A program made the translations under genes and the position numbers. 64,000 nucleotides of DNA from Candidatus Latescibacterota bacterium. GTDB taxonomy: Bacteria > Latescibacterota > UBA2968 > UBA8231. Every line of letters starts with the position of its first letter. The stretch's first letter is position 1. The notes beneath the pieces are model-generated. The model ran no database searches. It worked only from the letters and a program-made list of their open reading frames with translations, and was not told where the DNA came from. This document shows, piece by piece, positions 16,949 to 27,251 of the stretch. The stretch is from the NCBI GenBank assembly GCA_965197905.1, contig CBDAOB010000003.1, positions 96,001-160,000 of the forward strand. The letters run 5' to 3'.

Positions 16949-17953
16949 ATGGCAGACAAAGTGAGAGTCGCATTGATCGGCGCGGGGGGCATGGGCATGA
17001 ATGTCCACCTCCCTTGTCTGGCGAGTTTGTCCGATGTCGAATTAGTGGCTGTCTGCGACGTGGTAGAGGAGAAGGCGCAAGAGGCTGCACAAGAATTCGG
17101 CATCCCTCTGAGTTTTTCCGACTACAACGAGATGCTCTCCGCAACCGATCCCCAGGTGGTCTATGCCGTATTGAGACCTCAGGACCTCTACGAACCGGCA
17201 GCGGTGGTCCTCCGGCAGGGGCGGCATCTCTTCGTCGAGAAGCCGTTGGCGATGACGGCGAAACAGGCACAGATGTTGGCTTATCTCGCCCACGAGCATT
17301 CCTGCCTTACGGCGGTGGGTTTTCAGAGGCGGCACATCCCGGCGCTCACGGCGCTAAAGCCGCGGGTCGAGGAACAGGGACCGATCCACCAGGCAACCGT
17401 GAGTTTTCTCAAGGGGGGGCAGCACTTTCCCCTCGACAAGCATGCCGGCCTCTGGGGCGCCGTGATTGACAACCTGACGGTGGATGGAGTTCATGCGGTG
17501 GACAACCTGAGATTTCTTTGCGGTGGTGAAGTGGTAAGTGTGGCGGCCCATGTTCGCGCCCGCTACGTGCCGGGGCCAATGCCCAACGAGTTTACCGCTC
17601 TGGTGTCGTTCAGCACGGGTGCGGTCGGTATCCTCAACTCCAGCTACGCTACTCGTATCGGTGTGTTTCGAGCTGAGTTCCACAGCAGGAACATCACCGG
17701 CTACGTGGATGCGAACGGTCAGTCGTTCATCAGGGCTGGTCGAGAAAAGTCGGAGGTGTACGAGTCGAAGGAATTTGGAACTGCAGGAGGAGCACCGGGG
17801 GACAACCATCTGCATTGGGCCGGTTTCTGGCATGAAAACCGGCATTTCATCGATTGCGTGAAAGAGGGACACCAACCATTGACCCACTTTGCCGACGCCG
17901 TCAAGACCATGGAGCTGGTGGAGCAGATCCACAAGGTGGGCGCCAGAAATTGA
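16949..17953 (+). CDS. Gfo/Idh/MocA oxidoreductase
   Basis: LIGAGGMG, FVEKP, VGFQRR, DGVHAVD. Confidence 0.9.
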   Translation: MADKVRVALIGAGGMGMNVHLPCLASLSDVELVAVCDVVEEKAQEAAQEFGIPLSFSDYNEMLSATDPQVVYAVLRPQDLYEPAAVVLRQGRHLFVEKPLAMTAKQAQMLAYLAHEHSCLTAVGFQRRHIPALTALKPRVEEQGPIHQATVSFLKGGQHFPLDKHAGLWGAVIDNLTVDGVHAVDNLRFLCGGEVVSVAAHVRARYVPGPMPNEFTALVSFSTGAVGILNSSYATRIGVFRAEFHSRNITGYVDANGQSFIRAGREKSEVYESKEFGTAGGAPGDNHLHWAGFWHENRHFIDCVKEGHQPLTHFADAVKTMELVEQIHKVGARN

Positions 17954-18036
17954 CGGAACAGCGAACCGTCGGTGTGCGCCGGATCGAACTTGGTGATGTC
18001 AAACACGTCAAGGTCCACTACGACGACCGTCTCTAA
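17950..18036 (+). pseudogene. N-terminal stub (MTEQRTVGVRRIELGDVKH...) of a probable BNR/sialidase-like gene
   Basis: TTG overlaps the upstream TGA; VGVRRIEL resembles VGVRRVEL at the start of stub 47444-47723. Confidence 0.55.
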
Positions 18037-18209
18037 CGTCGTCCGAGTCGCGTCCTCCCTTTAATCCTCGCACATACCTGGCCGGGCGTCTTCGTTTGCA
18101 GAGTTGCCGTGAGAGCCGCATGGTTCCAACGACTCGATGACTGTGGCTCTCAACGCCGAACATCACCTCAGCGGCTCCTGCCTGACGAATACGACTCGAC
18201 GATGGTCAT

Positions 18210-18231
18210 AATTGTGTGTTCATGCGCCATT
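18210..18231. promoter_or_regulatory. Putative enhancer (UAS) for the sigma-54 activator
   Basis: AATTGTGTGTTCATGC matches AATTGAGTATTCATGC (23731) at 14/16; 117 bp upstream of the -24 GG. Confidence 0.6.
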
Positions 18232-18285
18232 AACAGAATCCAGTGTGCTGATCGATTTGGTTAGGTAACTATCTATAGTTAGTAA

Positions 18286-18298
18286 AAACAATAGTTTA
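18286..18298 (+). promoter_or_regulatory. IHF-like site
   Basis: AAACAATAGTTTA vs WATCAANNNNTTR, one mismatch; lies between UAS and promoter in an AT-rich tract. Confidence 0.45.
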
Positions 18299-18325
18299 TG
18301 TAAAAAGCGCAATAGTACGGAATAT

Positions 18326-18341
18326 CGGCACGTAACTTGCA
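18326..18341 (+). promoter_or_regulatory. Sigma-54 (-24/-12) promoter of the cyclase operon
   Basis: CGGCACGTAACTTGCA vs consensus TGGCACG-N4-TTGCW; GG-N10-GC. Confidence 0.8.
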
Positions 18342-18416
18342 ATAGTGAATTATTCCATGTAGTTTGCCAGCCCTGAGCCAGGTTGTGACTGGGGTGGATT
18401 GATTTCTTCGGAGTGA

Positions 18417-21400
18417 GTGGCCATGAAGTGCCCAAACTGCAGCTTCGAGAGTCCCGCCGAGTTTTTATACTGCGGCAAGTGCGGCACAAGGATCGATCAC
18501 ACGGCGGCGAAGCGGGGCTTTATTCCGCCCAATCATCCAGTACGCAGCACTCGGGACGCCACAGATTCGGTGGCCCAACAATCAGCAGCTGCTGACGCCG
18601 AACGACGGCAGCTCACTGTCATGTTCTGCGATCTGGTCGGCTCGACGCCCCTCGCCGAACGGCTGGATCCGGAAGAGCTGCGCGAAATTCTGCGGCAATA
18701 CCAGGAAACCTGCAGCAAGGTAGTACTCAGGTTCGAAGGGCACATCGCACGCTATCTCGGCGACGGGTTGCTGGTCTACTTCGGGTATCCAAAGGCGCAT
18801 GAAGATGATGCTCATCGAGCAGTGCGGGCCGGACTAGGAATTCTTGCCGCGATGACTCGACTGCGGATGCGCTTCGAGAAAGAGAAAGGTATATGTCTGG
18901 ATCTGCGTTTGGGAATCCACACGGGCCTGGTGGTGGCCGGAGACATGGACGCCGGTGAAGAGCTAGAAACAATGGCTGTTGTCGGCGAAACTCCCAACAT
19001 AGCCGCACGACTGCAGACTCTGGCCGAGCCCAATTCCTTGATCGTGAGCAAAGCTACCAAGCAACTCGTCGAAGGTTTCTTCAATTGCCGAGGTCTGGGG
19101 AAAAAACAGCTAGAAGGGATTTCAGTTCCCGTCGAGGTGTACGAGGTTCTCGACGAAAGTGCCGTGCGGAGCCGGCTGGAGATCACCGGACCCAGGGAGA
19201 TGGCGCCGCTGGTGGGCAGGGATCACACTGTTGGACTGTTGATGGACGGATGGGAAAAGGCGAGGGAAGGGATTGGTCGGGTAATGCTTATCAGTGGGGA
19301 GCCGGGGATTGGGAAGTCTAGACTCGTTCACGTAATAAAGGAGCATGTTTCAGAGGATCCCACTGCGTGGCTGATGGAATGCCGGTGTTCTCCGTACCAC
19401 CAGCGCACGGCATTCTACCCCATGGTGGATCTCCTTGAGCGGATCGTGCTCAAGATCGGGCACGACGAATCAGCCGCGGAGCGCCTGGCGAAGTTAGAGA
19501 AGCTACTCCTACAGCTCGGGCTGCCGCTGGCCGAAGCGGTGCCACTCCTTGCGGAGCTACTGGCTCTGCCATCCAATGGCAGGTATGAGGAACTCAGGCA
19601 GTCTCCAGAGGAACGCCGTCGCCAGACGATGGATGCTCTTACCAATATCCTGCTGGAGATTGCCAAGCGACAACCGCTGCTTTTCGTGGTCGAGGATCTC
19701 CACTGGATCGACCCGACGACCTTGGAGCTGCTCAATCTGGTCGTGGACCAGGGGCCCAGCGCACGCATTTTCGCACTGTTCACCTATCGACCTGAATTCA
19801 TTCCCACGTGGGCGGGATGAGCTTTCGTGACGCAAGTGGCTCTGACCCGATTGACCACTCAGCAGATTCAGGAAGTGGTCGGCTGGGTTGTGGGCGGGAA
19901 GGCATTGCCCGACATGGTGATGGAACAAGTGGTCAGCAAAACAGACGGTGTGCCACTGTTCGTAGAAGAGCTGACCAAGATGGTGCTGGAGTCCAATCTC
20001 CTAAAGGAGACGGACGACCGTTACGAGCTAGTTGGCCCATTGCCGCCCCTGGCGATTCCAACTACCCTGCAGGACTCCCTCATGGCTCGTCTAGATCGGC
20101 TGGGCGCGGCGAAGGAGACGGCGCAGCTGGGTGCTACTTTCGGCCGCGACATTCCGTTCGAGTGGTTGCGGGCCGTAACCACATTGGACGAGGCTGAGTT
20201 GCAGCGCCATGTCAACACCTTGGTAGAGGCGGAACTGCTGTTTGCGCACGGCGAGGCGTCGTAGGTGTCATACGCCTTCAAGCACGCCTTGATACAAGAC
20301 GCGGCGTACCAGTCGCTACTGGTAAGCACCCGCCAGGGCTATCACGTACGCATCGCCAACACACTTGAGACCCGCTTCCCAGAAATGACCAAGTCACAGC
20401 CTGAGCTCATCGCCCACCATTACACCGAAGCGGGTCTGAGCGAGCAGGCCGTGCCGTACTGGCGCTGGGCCGGCGAGCTTGCTACTGCAAAATTCGCCAA
20501 TCGCGAGGCGATCGATCACTTCGGCAAGGGACTGGGACTGATTCGCGACCTGGAAAAAGCCGACAAGCACGCGCGGATAGAGTCGGAGTTGCAGCTCGGC
20601 ATGGGGTATGCCCAGCATCGGGATGGCCGGACTCTCGAAGCAATGGAAGCTTTCGAAAAAGCCGCGAGATGTGCCAGGGATGCGAAATCGACAGACTGTC
20701 TTGCTCGCGCTGCTATCGGCTACGAAGAGGTGCGATGGCGATTCAACCTGGCAACCGATGTGGGCCGAGAACTCCTCGAAGAAGCCGCGCAGCGATTAAG
20801 TGAGGAAGATAGTATCCTGAGGGCGAGCGTTCTGGGAGCGCTGGCTAGAGAGTTGACGCATGCCGATCCCGAGCGTTCGAGCGCGCTGTGGGAGCAAGCG
20901 ATAAGGCTGGCTCGGCGGGCGGGAGATTCCGAAGCGCTATACGTCGTTCTGAGGGGGAGCCTTTTCGCAAATCGGAGACCGGAAACATTCGCCCAGCAGC
21001 TGGCCGTGGTTGAGGAAGCGATGCAGCTCGCGGTACTCCTGGGCGACAAGGAACGCGAGCTGGACATGCATGGGTTTCTGTTATACCAGCATCTCGAAGC
21101 GGGTGATCTGCAGGCAGTCACGCGGAGCCACAAGACTAGCAATGAATTGCGGAAGGTTGTCCACCTGCCGTTTTACGACCACATATGGATGCTAAACGAG
21201 GTGACGCTCGCATACCTTAGCGGCCGTTTCGATGAGGCGGAGCAGTTGGCGCAGGAAGCCCAGGTTCTCGGTGATAAGATGGAGCTGGACGTGGATGGTC
21301 CGTACGGCATGCAGATGTTCAACATTCGGAGACAGCAGGGCCGGCTGCGGGAGGTGGCACCGCTGGTTGAGCTCTTCCTGGAACAATATTCGTTGGATTC

Positions 21401-21947
21401 CACGTGGAGACCGGGACTCGCTCTCATTCACGCCGAACTGGGCAACATCGAGGAGGCGAGAGCCGAGTTCGAGAATCTTGCAGCCAGCGATTTCACCGAC
21501 ATCCCCAGAGACGCCATGTGGACCGGCACAATGTCGTACTTAAGTGAGGTCTGCGTCTTCCTCGGCGACCGTCGACGGGCAGCGCTTCTGTATCAGCTGC
21601 TGTTGCCGTACGTGGGCTATAACGTGATGGTGGGCGCGGGCGTAATGTGTTACGGTGCCGCCTGTCGCTATCTAGGTAATCTTTCAACCGTCCTGCGCCG
21701 CTGGGAAGAAGCGGAAAAGCACTACGTAGAAGCGCTACGACTCAACCTGCAACAAGGTGCGAGACCGTACGTGGCCCACACCCAGTGCGACTACGCCGAA
21801 ATGTTGCGCGCGCGCGGCAGGAACGCCGATCGAGCAAGGGCGGATACCTTGTTAGAGGAGGCGGCTGTGTTGGCGCGGGATCTCGGTATGAACGAGCTGG
21901 AAAGCAAGGTAGAGTCCCGTCGTGCGCCCGCGCCTGCGCGCGATTGA
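18417..21947 (+). pseudogene. Zinc-ribbon + class III nucleotidyl cyclase + AAA/STAND-like NTPase + TPR-like protein, interrupted by in-frame TGA (19818-19820) and TAG (20262-20264)
   Basis: CPNC/CGKC; FCDLVGST, YLGDG, GIHTG, GETPNIAARLQ; GEPGIGKS; EDLHWID; GVPLFVEE; YAFKHALIQDAAY. ORFs 18417, 19827 and 20265 share one frame. Confidence 0.9.
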
Positions 21948-22005
21948 TGTGTGGGTCAGACGGGCTTGAGATGCCAACGTATTAGCCACCAACAAGGAGT
22001 TGAAT

Positions 22006-22269
22006 ATGCCACTGTTCTTGATCGAGCGAAACTTTGCAGAACAACACTTGCCGACAGAGACAGGCATCCGGGAGGTGACGAAGGCAAATGCAGAGGAAGG
22101 GGTCAAGTGGCTGTTTTCGTTCCTCAGTGCCGACAAGCGGAAGACTTACTGCCTGTACGAAGCCCCGAGCGCCGAGCCAATCCGCAAGGCTGCCGACCGG
22201 CTCGGTTTACCGGCGGATGTGATAGTCGAGGTTAGCGAGATTGGCCCCGAAATGTTCTCGCGGGCGTGA
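22006..22269 (+). CDS. DUF4242 (SCO4226-like) small protein
   Basis: MPLFLIERNF, WLFSFLSADKRKTYCLYEAPS, GLPADVIVEV; AAGGAG RBS. Confidence 0.8.
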   Translation: MPLFLIERNFAEQHLPTETGIREVTKANAEEGVKWLFSFLSADKRKTYCLYEAPSAEPIRKAADRLGLPADVIVEVSEIGPEMFSRA

Positions 22270-22275
22270 CCCCAT

Positions 22276-23736
22276 TTGATCATGACCGGTTACATCACAT
22301 TCCTCGGATCTACCGGGCTGTTGGCAGGTGTCCCCTCTGCTGAGTTGCAGGCCATTTCCGACTCGGTGGAAAAGATCGAGCTGCAGCGGGGAGCAACCCT
22401 ATTTCGGGAAGGGGATCCAGGAGATGCCGTTTACCTCATCAAAGAGGGGAAGCTCCGGCTCGAAAGTAACGAGGTGCCTATCGCCAGCCGCACCGTTGGC
22501 GATACGGTTGGCGAACTCGCTTTGGTAGACAACGAAAGGCGGAGCGCCTCCGCCGTCGCCGATACAAAGGTGGCCCTCCTCAAGTGGTCCAAAGAGAACT
22601 TTCACGACACATTGCGGCGAAGCCCGGAAGCGGCGCTGGGTATTTTGCGAGTGTTGTCGGCCAAGTTGCGCGAAGATGTGGCTGTCCAGGTGATCACTGC
22701 GAGGCAGTTGCAGCAGGCAAATGAGCAACTCGAAAGGGAAAACCGCAGCCTGCGGGTGCGCCTATCCCCTACGCCCGAGATGGTTACCGACAGTCCTCGC
22801 ATGGAGCAGGTGATCGAACTGGCACGCAAGGTGGCGGACACCTCAAGCACGGTCTTGCTGCGCGGTGAGAGCGGTACCGGCAAGGAGGTATTGGCGCATC
22901 TGATTCATCGCCACAGCGACTATCGCGACGGTCCGTTTATTCCCGTACACTGCGCCGCACTGCCCCGCGACCTCCTCGAAAGCGAGCTCTTCGGCCACGA
23001 AAAGGGTGCGTTCACCGGCGCTACCGCGCGCCGCGTCGGTCGCTTTGAGTTGGCAGATGGCGGTACGCTTTTTCTAGATGAGATAGGAGAACTGGATCAG
23101 GACATCCAGGTCAAGCTGTTGCGGGTGCTGCAGTCGCAGGAGTTCGAGCGGATTGGGGGCAGCAAGACCATTAGCGTGAATGTACGGCTGATCTCGGCGA
23201 CCAATCGAAACCTGGAAGAGGCGGTTGCCTCGGGCGGGTTTCGGGAGGATCTATATTACCGATTGAACGTAATACCAATCTTGTTGCCGCCTCTCCGCGA
23301 GCGGCGAGAGGATATCCCGCTGTTAGTGGAGCACTTCCTCGCACAGTACAGCAAAGAGCTTGCTCGGCCCGCATGCCGGGCATCCGCCCAGGCGATGGAC
23401 ATGTTAGCTAGCTATTCATGGCCCGGGAACGTGCGCGAGCTGCAGAACCTGGTGGAGCGAATGGTCGTCGTGGTTGACGATGAGATCATCGGACCGTTGC
23501 ACCTGCCGCCGGAGATGCAAGGACTAAGGAATCCGATAACCGATCCGGTCCCTGCAGGGATGGAGCCTCTTGCCGAAGTCGAGGAGAGACATGTCAGAGC
23601 TGCCCTCATTCGATGTGGCTGGAATCAGAGTCGCGCGGCCAGGCTTCTCGAGATCTCCCGCGAGCAGCTCCGCCATCGGATCAGACAGTACCAGATCGAG
23701 GGGCCTTGGAAAGTCGGCGCTCCGGAGCGCAATTGA
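22276..23736 (+). CDS. Sigma-54 enhancer-binding protein with N-terminal cyclic-nucleotide-binding domain
   Basis: LFREGDPGD...GELAL...RSASAVA (cNMP cassette); coiled coil; [28 protein letters not shown]; Fis-type HTH. Confidence 0.92.
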
Positions 23737-23774
23737 GTATTCATGCATAAATAATTGTGCACATACGCTCAGTT
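23731..23774. promoter_or_regulatory. Tandem putative UAS pair
   Basis: AATTGAGT-N6-GCATAAAT and AATTGTGC-N6-GCTCAGTT, imperfect palindromes like the 18210 site; 153 and 131 bp upstream of the -24 GG. Confidence 0.6.
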
Positions 23775-23827
23775 AGAAGTCGACCTCTGGCTATAAAATG
23801 TGTGTCGCGGCCGCTCGCAAAACTCCA

Positions 23828-23840
23828 TAAATCATTGTTA
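23828..23840 (-). promoter_or_regulatory. IHF-like site
   Basis: TAAATCATTGTTA vs reverse consensus YAANNNNTTGATW, one mismatch. Confidence 0.45.
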
Positions 23841-23882
23841 ATACGAAAGATTGAAACAGGTTTGTGCGATGAGTGTGCCTGC

Positions 23883-23898
23883 TGGTCCGCTAGTTGCA
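23883..23898 (+). promoter_or_regulatory. Sigma-54 (-24/-12) promoter of the acyl-CoA dehydrogenase gene
   Basis: TGGTCCGCTAGTTGCA; GG-N10-GC with TTGCA; about 60 bp before ATG 23956. Confidence 0.7.
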
Positions 23899-23955
23899 AT
23901 GCATACAGGGTCGAACATGCCCACAAACCTCACCTTAGAAAAAGGAGTTACCGCA

Positions 23956-25158
23956 ATGAGCCAGACGACAGCTGCTGAAATGGTCGGCACGAACGGCCAG
24001 GTACTGTCAGAGGATACCCTTCAACGCTGCCTCGAACGGGCCCCCGGCTATGATGAGGGGAACACATTCTTCCAGGAAGATTTCGATGAACTGAAGGATG
24101 CGGGTTATCTAACCATGGCCGTCCCGAAGGAGTTGGGCGGCAAGGGGATGACGCTAGCCGAGGTAGCTCGGGAACAAACTAGACTAGCATACTTTGCGCC
24201 TGCTACGGCTCTCGCTATCAACATGCATCTCTACTGGACCGGGTTGGTTGCCGACGTGTGGCGGTCCGGCGACCGCTCGCTGGAGTGGTTGCTGACCGAG
24301 GCCGCGGCCGGTGAGGTATTCGCGGCCGGTCACGCCGAAAGCGGCAACGACCTTCCGGTTCTGCTATCCACGACCAATGCCGAACGGGTTGACGGCGGCT
24401 ATCGGTTCACCGGACACAAGTCATTCGGAAGCCTGACCCCCGTGTGGACGCGACTTGGAATTCACGGCATGGATACCAGCGATCCCGAAGCGCCGAAGAT
24501 TGTGCACGCCTTCATGACCCGAGACGCCGAGAACTACACCATCAAAGATACCTGGGATGTTTTGGGCATGCGCGCCACGCGCAGCGACGACACGCTGCTC
24601 GAAGGGGTGTTTGTGCCGGACCAGTATATCGCTCGGGTTGTGCCCCCGGGTGCCGCCGGAATCGATCTGTTTGTCTTGGGCATATTCGCATGGGCGCTGC
24701 TGGGTTTCGGCAGCGTTTACTACGGGCTGGCGCGAAGGGCTTTTGATGTGACCATAGAGGCGATCAAGAAAAAGACCTCGCTCGGGCTTACTCGCTCGAT
24801 GGCCGACCACGCCGGGGTCCAGCACGTCGTCGCCGAGATGGCGATCGAGCTGGAGTCTATCGGTCCTCACCTCGAGAAGATCTGCCAGGATTGGTCCACT
24901 GGGGTCGATCATGGCGCCGAGTGGGGAGCGAAGATCTGCGCCGCGAAGTACCACGCCGTGGAGGGCTCGTGGAAGGTCGTCGACAAATGCATCGAGGTGG
25001 CCGGCGGCTTTGGAATCTTCAAGAAGGCAGGGTTGGAGCGCCTGTTCCGGGATGCGCGATTGGGGCGCATCCATCCCTCGAACTATTTCCTCACTCACGA
25101 GTTCGTAGCGAAGACAGTCCTGGGGATCGACCCGGACGAGGCACCGCGGTGGGGCTAG
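23956..25158 (+). CDS. Acyl-CoA dehydrogenase family flavoprotein (possibly a flavin-dependent monooxygenase)
   Basis: AAAGGAG RBS; VPKELGG, NMH, GHKSFGS, LGMRATRSD, LERLFRDARLGRIHP. Confidence 0.9.
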   Translation: MSQTTAAEMVGTNGQVLSEDTLQRCLERAPGYDEGNTFFQEDFDELKDAGYLTMAVPKELGGKGMTLAEVAREQTRLAYFAPATALAINMHLYWTGLVADVWRSGDRSLEWLLTEAAAGEVFAAGHAESGNDLPVLLSTTNAERVDGGYRFTGHKSFGSLTPVWTRLGIHGMDTSDPEAPKIVHAFMTRDAENYTIKDTWDVLGMRATRSDDTLLEGVFVPDQYIARVVPPGAAGIDLFVLGIFAWALLGFGSVYYGLARRAFDVTIEAIKKKTSLGLTRSMADHAGVQHVVAEMAIELESIGPHLEKICQDWSTGVDHGAEWGAKICAAKYHAVEGSWKVVDKCIEVAGGFGIFKKAGLERLFRDARLGRIHPSNYFLTHEFVAKTVLGIDPDEAPRWG

Positions 25159-25227
25159 TAACGGAGGGCGAAAGGGCGTGGCGAGCATTATCAAGAGGGC
25201 CAGAACGCCAATTAAGGTGGTGCTACA

Positions 25228-25405
25228 ATGACTCAAGCTGATACCAGCAACAATCAAATGTCCGTGCTTCGAAGTCCGTATGAAAAACTCGCAGGTTGTT
25301 ATCATCTGGTGCGCATTACCGACAAGATCCGCTTAGTTTCGATGCTTCAAGATCGAGGACTGGGATGAGGGTCGTTTACTAGACTTGAAAGGCATCGAGC
25401 GATGA
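25228..25405 (+). pseudogene. Internally deleted DUF5069-like gene
   Basis: N-terminal LRSPYEKLAGCYHLVRITDKIR joined out of frame to C-terminal CFKIEDWDEGR; terminal TGA overlaps the next ATG. Confidence 0.65.
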
Positions 25406-26241
25406 ATTTGCCAACAATGCAGCTTACCAACATCAATGGCATCAACTTGGAAATCTCGGATCGTGGATCGGGAGATCCCGTCGTGTTTATTCACGGCGCC
25501 AGTGGGGACGAGTGTTTCGCGGTCCTTGAGGAACCCGCCCTCGCCGACTCTTATCGTCTGATACATTATCATCGACGCGGCTGGGGCCAGAGCGAATGTC
25601 TGGAGATGCCGGTCAGTAACGAACTACAGTCAGCGGACTGCCAGGCGCTTCTTCGACATCTGGGCATCGGACGGGCGCACTTCGTCGGTCAGTCCGGTGG
25701 CGGCATCGTGGCCTTGCAGGTCGCGCTGGACGCTCCTGAGATGGTGCATTCTATTGCCCTGCTCGAACCGGCGCTGCCTTCTGTTCTTTTCAACGCCGCG
25801 GAGTTCGGTGCCGTAGCGGAAAAAGCCGTGGCGGCGTACGAGTCAGGTAACAAGGCTGACGCGATCGACACCTTTGGCCAGGAGGTAGCCGGGGTTGATT
25901 ACCGCAAAGTGTTTGACCGGACCTTGCCGCCCGGCAACTTCGAACGTTGGGTGGCCGACGCGGATACTCTATTTCAGGCTGATTTCCCAGCTTACCCTGC
26001 ATGGACCTTTGGCGGTGACGAGGCCGCTCGTATTTCGCAGCCGACACTCAACATGATGGGGGCCAATACCAACTCTTATTTCCGGGAAATTTACGAAACT
26101 GTGTGTTCATGGGTACCTCACGCGGAGAACTTCGTTCTGCCCAACGCGACCCATGCCATGCTGCAGACGAATCCGAAAGCTGCGGCTGAGCGTTTAGCAA
26201 GCTTCTTCTCGAACAATCCGTTGCAAGAGGGGATGGCATGA
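25402..26241 (+). CDS. Alpha/beta hydrolase
   Basis: VFIHG, RRGWGQS, nucleophile elbow GQSGG, C-terminal His (ATHAM). Confidence 0.9.
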   Translation: MNLPTMQLTNINGINLEISDRGSGDPVVFIHGASGDECFAVLEEPALADSYRLIHYHRRGWGQSECLEMPVSNELQSADCQALLRHLGIGRAHFVGQSGGGIVALQVALDAPEMVHSIALLEPALPSVLFNAAEFGAVAEKAVAAYESGNKADAIDTFGQEVAGVDYRKVFDRTLPPGNFERWVADADTLFQADFPAYPAWTFGGDEAARISQPTLNMMGANTNSYFREIYETVCSWVPHAENFVLPNATHAMLQTNPKAAAERLASFFSNNPLQEGMA

Positions 26242-26290
26242 AGGCAGAGTGCGTGGACGAAACAGGAACTACGCCAAAAGCTGCGGGGGC

Positions 26291-26457
26291 CTAGTGCCCA
26301 GTATCGAAAATATGCCTGTATTAATTCGCCGATTCATCCCGACCTGCTGCGTTACGCTCACTCGGCGTATTCACCAATACGCCTGGATCGCGCGCCTTGC
26401 AGGCCGGGCGACTCGGGGCCTTCATTTCACAAGCCTACTTCCGATACAGGGCACTAG
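26291..26457. mobile_element. MITE-like palindromic repeat, copy 2
   Basis: CTAG-TGCCCAGTATCG...CGATACAGGGCA-CTAG; the right CTAG supplies the stop codon of the PhyH gene. Confidence 0.85.
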
Positions 26458-27251
26458 CTACTCCTCAGGGCTTCCACCTGACGGCGCCCGATCTCTTTGA
26501 TCAGGACATCGGGCTGCGCGTCCAGCTTCGAATAGGCGGGGTTTCCTCGCGGCATCTTCTTGAAAGGACTGTTCCGTGCGGCGTTGTAAGAGCAGATCAA
26601 CGCCCAGCGGCGCTGATCGCTGTGATTGTGATCGGAACAGTGCATCAGATTGCAGTCAAAGAACAGAGCTGAGCCGCGGTCCATCTCGCAGTTAACCAGT
26701 TCCATATGCTCCAGCGCTGCGTCCACCCGCTCCGCATCGGCGCTCATCTGGCCGGCGACGTAGTGGTGCTCAACGCGGCCTATCTTGTGTGACCCCCGAA
26801 TCGCCTTGATGCAGCCGTTTCGCTCCGTCGCCGGGTCTACGGCGACCAGGCAGCTTGCCAGCAGTGGGAAAAGACAGGCGTGCTCGACGTACCAGTAGCC
26901 GTAGTCCTGGTGCCACTCCCATGCTCCGCCTACGCGCGGATCCTTGAACATCATCTTGTGATTCCAGTGGTACGCCTCACCTTCGAGAATCTGCTCGATG
27001 GGTCCCAACAGGCGGGGACAACGCACGAAGGCAGAGTAGATGTCATCGTCGAGCACGGTGCGCGCCGTCAACCGGGTGATGCCGCCGTCGCCGTCCTCGC
27101 GCACGTATGACTCGTCGGTCAAGCTTTGATCGGTCTCGGCGATCTGCTGTAGAAGATCCATCTCTTCACCGTCGAACAGTCCTTCCACTAGCAAAAAGCC
27201 ATCGGCGCGAAACTGCGCTAATTGGGCGTCGGTCAGGTTGGAGGAATCCAC
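26454..27251 (-). CDS. PhyH family dioxygenase (ectoine/proline hydroxylase-like)
   Basis: FRADGFL, KMMFKDP, WEWHQDYGYW, GSH, LMHCS; start uncertain (GTG 27251 or ATG 27362). Confidence 0.88.
   Translation of the reverse strand: MDSSNLTDAQLAQFRADGFLLVEGLFDGEEMDLLQQIAETDQSLTDESYVREDGDGGITRLTARTVLDDDIYSAFVRCPRLLGPIEQILEGEAYHWNHKMMFKDPRVGGAWEWHQDYGYWYVEHACLFPLLASCLVAVDPATERNGCIKAIRGSHKIGRVEHHYVAGQMSADAERVDAALEHMELVNCEMDRGSALFFDCNLMHCSDHNHSDQRRWALICSYNAARNSPFKKMPRGNPAYSKLDAQPDVLIKEIGRRQVEALRSS

Follow-up and report, generated by a model that had tools for sequence, protein, structure and literature searches.

A candidate sigma-54 regulon around a cyclic nucleotide-sensing enhancer-binding protein, with an apparently decaying cyclase gene, in Candidatus Latescibacterota

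Results

The window analyzed here is a 64,000-nt stretch of contig CBDAOB010000003.1 from a Candidatus Latescibacterota genome (G000). It contains a block of six co-oriented genes encoding, in order, a class III cyclase fused to a STAND NTPase and tetratricopeptide repeats (TPRs), a small SCO4226-like protein, a sigma-54 activator with a cyclic nucleotide monophosphate (cNMP)-binding domain, a flavoprotein, a DUF5069 remnant and a hydrolase (Table 1). An earlier annotation of this DNA (the original prediction) had described the run as a self-contained cyclic nucleotide/sigma-54 positive feedback circuit. The six genes lie where it placed them and carry the domains it named, but the cyclase is not one intact open reading frame. 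Judging from sequence comparisons, we consider it rather likely that the block is a sigma-54 regulon organized around a cNMP-sensing enhancer-binding protein with a cyclase feedback loop; the local copy of this module looks like one that is decaying in this species.

Table 1. Features of the block and related loci (window positions unless a contig is given)
Feature	Position	Strand	Remarks
Whole module	17950..26348		~8.4 kb between Gfo/Idh/MocA gene and PhyH gene
Upstream palindrome, cyclase operon (predicted upstream activating sequence, UAS)	18209..18232		2 mismatches; 118 bp above -24 G
IHF-like site, cyclase promoter	18286..18298	+	one mismatch; 41 bp to -24 G, as in L103
Sigma-54 -24/-12 motif, cyclase operon	18326..18341	+	GG-N10-GC, 1 mismatch to consensus
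Zinc ribbon-class III cyclase-AAA_16 (STAND NTPase)-TPR gene	18423..21947	+	pieces of 465, 145 and 560 aa
TGA, codon 466	19818..19820	+	common to both sampled strains; Arg in intact orthologue P0284
TAG, codon 614	20262..20264	+	window strain; Gln in second strain and orthologue P0284
SCO4226-like (DUF4242) small ferredoxin-fold protein	22006..22269	+	PF14026, 67 bits
cNMP-binding domain + coiled coil + sigma-54 AAA+ (GAFTGA) + Fis helix-turn-helix (HTH)	22282..23736	+	484 aa, intact in window strain
30-base deletion in second strain	22488..22517	+	X3 and X4 contigs; one sample
Two palindromes above flavoprotein promoter	23730..23775		weak 23730 (4 mismatches), strong 23752 (2)
IHF-like site, flavoprotein promoter	23828..23840	-	one mismatch
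Sigma-54 -24/-12 motif, flavoprotein operon	23883..23898	+	GG-N10-GC, 2 mismatches to consensus
Acyl-CoA-dehydrogenase-superfamily flavoprotein	23956..25158	+	nearer type 2/flavin monooxygenase-like members than classical acyl-CoA dehydrogenases
DUF5069 remnant, truncated	25228..25368	+	46 aa of 133-position family; E 1e-4, below cut-off
Alpha/beta hydrolase	25402..26241	+	G-x-S-x-G elbow
Inverted-repeat element, dispersed, ~170 bp	26291..26460		right edge of block
CRP-family protein	G000:C5:2261567-2262241 (L227:2068-2742)		RETVTR helix

The sensor of the activator is a PF00027 domain, its AAA+ domain (PF00158, 243 bits) has Walker A and B and GAFTGA motifs, and its HTH is of the Fis type (PF02954, HTH_8, 46 bits). 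Both GELAL..RSA and GAFTGA, the motifs singled out by the original prediction, are present. The phosphate-binding cassette agrees with canonical GE-x-AL-x-R and has the beta2-beta3 Gly (cassette motif from the consulted part of PMC2246266); it is lost in a second strain, and such a cassette does not separate cAMP from cGMP. In a structure model (predicted local distance difference test score 83.8), the cNMP domain continues into a 47-residue helix, and the best structural match of the model is GlxR-cAMP, with a root-mean-square deviation of 2.0 over 137 columns.

The activator belongs to a conserved family. Besides the window's own protein, 11 of 67 proteins retrieved at E<=1e-100 combine a cNMP domain, a sigma-54 AAA+ domain (PF00027 and PF00158) and an HTH at 54-64% identity. 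One of these 11 clusters is named Ca. Latescibacteria, and three more distant cNMP activators (42-44%) occur among the 150 best representatives. Two motifs, GE[FL]AL[IV]D..xRS and ISR[DE]QLR[HN]RI, are conserved family-wide, as are the cassette, the coiled coil, GAFTGA and, except in genome G102, the recognition helix. A profile of the N-terminal part had no match in the 75 other genomes of the taxonomic family. In the class it matched 6 of 132 genomes, with G000 among them. The activator itself is present in four of the six (G000, G079, G102 and G106, whose contig ends within the gene), and G026 and G103 were matched via cNMP domains fused to SpoIIE phosphatases. Three proteins (P0413, P0416 and P0417) have nearly the same AAA+ and HTH domains but REC or other N-termini, which suggest sensor swapping on one DNA-binding module.

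For the window activator, all 25 NCBIfam activator models listed scored below cut-off; NF038308, considered in the comparison with RtcR, gave 354 bits against a cut-off of 650. A DNA search of 40 relatives returned generic AAA+ matches only, and in a genome-contig scan with the full activator none of 66 loci held a cNMP-domain activator or another module gene, one of them having a cNMP match 3 kb away. The ESM Atlas yielded generic activators only (scores <0.9, a lead only). No cNMP activator was found among the 15 of 1752 plasmid matches listed; the one full-length match examined, of 643 aa, bears only a generic regulator annotation. A homologue search with the N-terminal part recovered mostly cNMP-SpoIIE proteins; because known orthologues escaped it, what it failed to recover carries no weight.

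No description of a cNMP-domain enhancer-binding protein was found in listings and abstract openings from the open PMC and bioRxiv literature. The consulted part of PMC7175178 sorts such activators into five groups by sensor (REC/PRD, PAS/V4R/ACT, GAF or absent), with cNMP in none; the window activator, with its PF00027 sensor, falls outside groups 1-5. Like groups 2-3 as presented there (XylR/DmpR, NifA/NorR/FhlA), the window system has an N-terminal sensor, a clade-6 AAA+ domain with GAFTGA and a Fis HTH, together with palindromic UASs 110-130 bp above a -24/-12 promoter and an IHF-like tract; unlike them, it senses through a cNMP-binding domain. The excerpts of two further papers describe CNB-AAA fusions as ABC-like, with sigma or NtrC not found as terms (PMC2246266), and do not contain cNMP as a term (PMC12316311). 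The protein is apparently an undescribed variant of enhancer-binding proteins. It shares the cNMP fold and the canonical cassette with CRP and GlxR but lacks a Crp HTH and has a sigma-54 AAA+ domain as its output. Cyclic mononucleotides are thought to reach transcription via CRP-type proteins at sigma-70 promoters.

Both predicted promoters carry the -24/-12 motif and the shared upstream palindrome that had been claimed for them. The -24/-12 motifs alone are weak, because the 6.69-Mb genome scanned for sites holds 63 such sites with one mismatch and 400 with two. The palindrome has the consensus TAATTGTG-N8-CACAATTA, and the copies at 18209-18232 and 23752-23775, from which this consensus was drawn, are its sole sites at <=2 mismatches in the genome. 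Above the flavoprotein gene, the weak palindrome lies 154 bp and the strong one 132 bp from the -24 G. The IHF-like sites of the original prediction are also there, but they too are weak alone, since matches as good arise in 874 of 5000 (18286) and 488 of 5000 (23828-23840) simulated sequences. The genome encodes an intact RpoN (489-aa open frame) and three IHF/HU-family proteins. Scans of the block found no sigma-70-like promoter, against 3.2 expected, and the coding strand upstream of the hydrolase gene gave no terminator-like site.

The palindromes could be sites of the host CRP, or of another of the genome's 23 activators, and not of the neighboring one. Their TGTG-N8-CACA spacing is that of a CRP box, the host has a CRP, its genome contains 7 perfect CRP cores (the reversed control gives 0), and another activator (C5:694154) has a similar HTH. 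We nevertheless regard this as very improbable: the palindromes mismatch the CRP core at 3-4 of 10 positions, a level met 12,720 and 80,042 times genome-wide, and the palindrome type tracks the activator's HTH type across G000, locus L103 and G102.

The cyclase-STAND-TPR gene is broken by nonsense stops, so a single polypeptide is encoded neither in the window (two stops) nor in the second strain (one stop); it is encoded by the orthologue P0284 (1175 aa, 76% identical), in which each affected codon is one C>T change from the stop. Strains were compared using contigs from four public runs, representing at most three samples from two studies; run X5, with short pieces only, was left aside. Short-read contigs of X1, which may be the source sample of the window, are identical to the window with both stops included, and long-read error was rejected as the origin of the stops on this ground. 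The second strain (X3 and X4, one sample) retains the TGA at codon 466 and has CAG at codon 614. Its 30-base deletion removes activator residues ~70-79, and with them the G-E-L at which the phosphate-binding cassette starts; in place of the deletion the ENA protein P0001 has a frameshifted form of the 22488 region. In the predicted proteins, the shared codon-466 stop thus separates the cyclase from the TPR sensor, and each of the two strains has further lesions. Several lesions within 8 kb point to relaxed selection on the module. By an approximate count, which includes some duplicate and borderline bins, about 23 of 575 paralogue bins of the genome have an internal stop. The claim of a working sensor-cyclase that feeds the neighboring activator was not borne out for this strain, and we doubt that the loop works here as designed.

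It is most improbable, in our view, that the split cyclase is functional, whether through recoding or as a protein meant to be made in two pieces. The TGA is common to both strains, tRNA-Sec is present, a GTG restart follows the TGA after 6 nt, and a hairpin folds downstream of it. Against this, P0284 has Arg and Gln at the stops, no tRNA-Pyl is found among the 53 tRNAs of the genome, and the second stop is polymorphic and accompanied by other lesions. Recoding by Sec or Pyl was rejected on the P0284 residues and the tRNA set.

A synteny survey covered 168 genomes of the phylum (G000 included) and the best 80 of at least 329 metagenome loci. The original prediction had named a lack of conserved synteny among its refutations; the set of four genes was found in 0 of the 167 other phylum genomes and 0 of those 80 loci. 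Counting G000 each time, the flavoprotein occurs in 2 of the 168 genomes, PF14026 in 6 and STAND cyclases (E<=1e-100) in 7; no other phylum genome has more than the activator in common with the flavoprotein or PF14026 lists. Among the best 80 metagenome loci, the activator occurs in 2 and PF14026 or the flavoprotein in none. The activator and flavoprotein are the sole module pair that recurs, in G102. Candidate targets consisting of a -24/-12 promoter with an upstream palindrome number two in the window and one each in L103, G079 and G102.

The metagenome locus L103 served as a held-out test of the palindrome. It encodes, in order, a STAS protein, a GAF-PAS-class III cyclase, RsbW, another STAS protein and an orthologous activator. 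The upstream region contains a -24/-12 motif (2 mismatches); the palindrome, at 3 mismatches, precedes this motif by 110 bp, and an IHF-like 13-mer precedes the -24 by 41 bp, the spacing seen in the window. In that intergenic composition, a palindrome with <=3 mismatches arose by chance in 46 of 20000 cases. The L103 cyclase has canonical K/T/N/R residues and is adenylyl-type by sequence, which favors cAMP as the ligand of the activator family. We infer that its cyclase and activator genes would be co-transcribed; the predicted layout independently supports the feedback design.

In G102 the activator gene is followed by the flavoprotein gene, a 76% orthologue of the window's, with an SDR gene upstream. 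The HTH is of another type, and another palindrome lies 113 and 202 bp above the -24 G. A short gene remnant (L080:4863-5060) lies between promoter and flavoprotein; since this remnant stands upstream and the ribosome-binding site is not followed by ATG, this flavoprotein copy may also be decaying. In G079, a cNMP-SpoIIE gene is followed by the activator gene and then by weak palindromes and a promoter, which precede a STAS-like gene.

These surveys bear on whether the module arose by chance assembly without any loop: a host-type cNMP activator that reads global cAMP would have been recruited to a flavoprotein operon, the STAND cyclase and SCO4226-like genes would be passengers, and the upstream promoter would serve mere autoregulation of the activator gene. 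The missing four-gene set elsewhere, the activator-flavoprotein pair without a cyclase in G102, an 846-kb contig of P0284 (intact cyclase) without an activator at >64%, the six other host cyclases, and the window cyclase being the first gene lost all fit such a history. However, L103 independently has a different cyclase under the same promoter type, and the cyclase domain is the best-conserved part relative to P0284 (88%, against 76-77% for the STAND and TPR parts), with its two metal-binding Asp and transition-state Asn and Arg residues kept in both (alignment to CyaB, 3r5g). Taken together, chance assembly appears unlikely, though it deserves serious weight.

Discussion

We return to the reading of the block as a regulon with a cyclase feedback loop. 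A 3',5'-cyclic nucleotide, most likely cAMP, would bind the sensor of the activator and relieve its block on the AAA+ ring via the long coiled coil; the activator, positioned at TAATTGTG-N8-CACAATTA, would then open both promoters. One target would be the cyclase-SCO4226-activator operon, a feedback loop by design, and the other the flavoprotein-hydrolase output. In its ancestral form, the cyclase may have had the STAND-TPR part as its ligand-gated switch. In relatives, the TPR sensor is also fused to LuxR, XRE, SARP or cyclase outputs; that it is common to such fusions suggests that the ancestral module relayed a STAND signal via a second messenger and not a fused HTH. If the activator still works here, its signal would probably come from the six other host cyclases or from the ungated 465-aa fragment.

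Both the positive sign of regulation and the identity of the ligand as cAMP are what we infer from sequence. The same parts would make negative feedback if the cyclic nucleotide inhibited the activator, and the sequence does not fix the sign; the inhibition of FleQ by c-di-GMP is a precedent. Yet CRP-type domains with a canonical cassette usually activate on ligand binding, and according to the consulted part of PMC7175178 the regulatory domains of such activators typically inhibit until ligand binds. An inhibitory ligand therefore seems quite improbable.

Several observations weigh against a regulon with a cyclase feedback loop. The two base-specifying residues, Lys and Thr in CyaB, are Arg and Ala in the window cyclase, which thus lacks the Lys and Thr/Asp pair of class III adenylyl cyclases; its product is uncertain for this reason. 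The activator C5:694154 of the same genome has a similar recognition helix. Palindrome sites with <=3 mismatches number 2-9 per genome, about as frequent as in the reversed control; the scan of five genomes showed no enrichment over control, with the best sites lacking linked -24/-12 motifs. The assembled L103 sequence has the cyclase gene divided between two frames, and G102 has no linked or close STAND cyclase. In G079 the cyclase orthologue and the activator are 1.5 Mb apart, and 18 kb at that cyclase contain no palindrome (<=4 mismatches) and no forward -24/-12 motif (<=2); the activator locus itself has only weak palindromes (5 mismatches). A cyclase under its own promoter of this type is found in only 2 of 4 assessable loci (G000 and L103).

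The predicted control of both promoters, and with them of the cyclase, by the activator draws on the conserved activator family, the L103 layout and the different palindrome that goes with the different HTH in G102, but not on a conserved four-gene set. Comparative support for the predicted cyclase feedback design is fair. Insulation of the circuit, implied by the original term self-contained, was not borne out: the genome has six class III cyclases outside the module, as well as a CRP and three more proteins with cNMP domains.

The closest wiring precedent for an activator whose target operon contains a ligand-making enzyme is RtcR/rtcBA. In the consulted part of PMC7790460, a CARF nucleotide sensor gates the activator and the target-operon enzyme RtcA is needed for the ligand, but that ligand is a tRNA fragment with a 2',3'-cyclic phosphate and not a diffusible 3',5'-cNMP, and the sensor fold is different. 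The cyclase resembles the TOMM kinase/cyclase (TIGR03903) in joining a class III cyclase, AAA_16 and TPRs, but it has no kinase or HTH, its intact orthologue scores 499 bits against a cut-off of 706, and the window copy is broken. Rv0386-type proteins are another cyclase-NTPase-TPR comparison for STAND cyclases. As in Pycsar, a cyclase adjoins a cNMP-domain protein, with weak profile matches to PycC and PycTIR that reflect common domains only; unlike Pycsar, the module has no PycTIR/PycTM, TIR or membrane effector, and its receptor is a transcription activator with metabolic targets. Among STAND clades, the consulted part of 10.64898/2026.01.04.697583 includes non-defence regulators, with SWACOS as a clade name.

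In G026, G103, L104 and L105, SpoIIE phosphatases encoded next to cyclase genes carry a sensor of the activator's subfamily. More tentatively, and with somewhat less than even confidence, we propose a direct cAMP-to-sigma-54 channel in Ca. Latescibacterota, in which one lineage-specific cNMP sensor has been fused to an activator and to SpoIIE, and the activator has captured differing cyclases (STAND-TPR here, GAF-PAS in L103) at least twice, giving a self-amplifying switch from an NLR-like sensor to sigma-54. If the reading of the block is true, the cNMP-binding activator would be a new sensor class in sigma-54 control, and a tight, CRP-independent cAMP reporter could be built from it. Because it appears to be decaying, the window copy would be poor material for testing the reading, which is testable in E. 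coli through the intact orthologues (P0132, L103 and P0284) together with the predicted palindrome.

The remaining genes of the block were compared with known families. The SCO4226-like protein does not belong to the nickel-binding SCO4226 family NF033706 (29.8 bits, cut-off 125); in the consulted part of PMC4186839, SCO4226 binds nickel with low affinity and has homologues that bear cyclase annotations. The closest relatives of the flavoprotein are type 2 acyl-CoA dehydrogenases, FAD-dependent oxidoreductases and nitrososynthases, and 0 of 15 NCBIfam acyl-CoA dehydrogenase or monooxygenase models reached cut-off. Residue 284 is Asp in the window strain and Tyr in the second strain and G102. 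Its plasmid relatives, in the 2 of 50 records examined, have no neighbors in common with it. The label catabolic for this output is a guess.

The block is absent from the congener G002, where the equivalents of window positions 17949 and 26349 are joined on a single contig with ~30 other bases between. These directly joined flanks mean that 17950-26348 is an insert, or that G002 has a deletion. GC and third-codon-position GC of the block are host-like, and composition gave no signal of a horizontal origin. No target-site duplication is evident in the G000/G002 junction comparison. Counting partial ones, the ~170-bp inverted-repeat element has 13 more copies in G000, and several are present in G002.

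Related arrangements occur elsewhere. A cNMP-SpoIIE gene lies directly upstream of a zinc-ribbon STAND cyclase gene in G026:C140 (L098:1-10141), L104 and L105, and the run continues with a CocE/NonD-type hydrolase and a second STAND cyclase; this could possibly be a cNMP-gated partner-switching circuit. Also recurrent in the lineage are GAF-PAS class III cyclases that adjoin an RsbW-type kinase and STAS proteins or are fused to them (L100:1998-9373, L211:8429-12624 and G000:C4:341035-343035, that is L225:7036-9035), the G000 copy being split into two open reading frames. In G000:C5:684324-694571 (L234), the REC activator C5:694154 has two STAND-TPR genes nearby, one of which includes a Ser/Thr kinase. 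Two genomes of the family encode an SCO4226-like domain joined to a SpoIIE phosphatase (L187:664-1731 and L188:1384-2538), in one case near a cNMP-domain gene.

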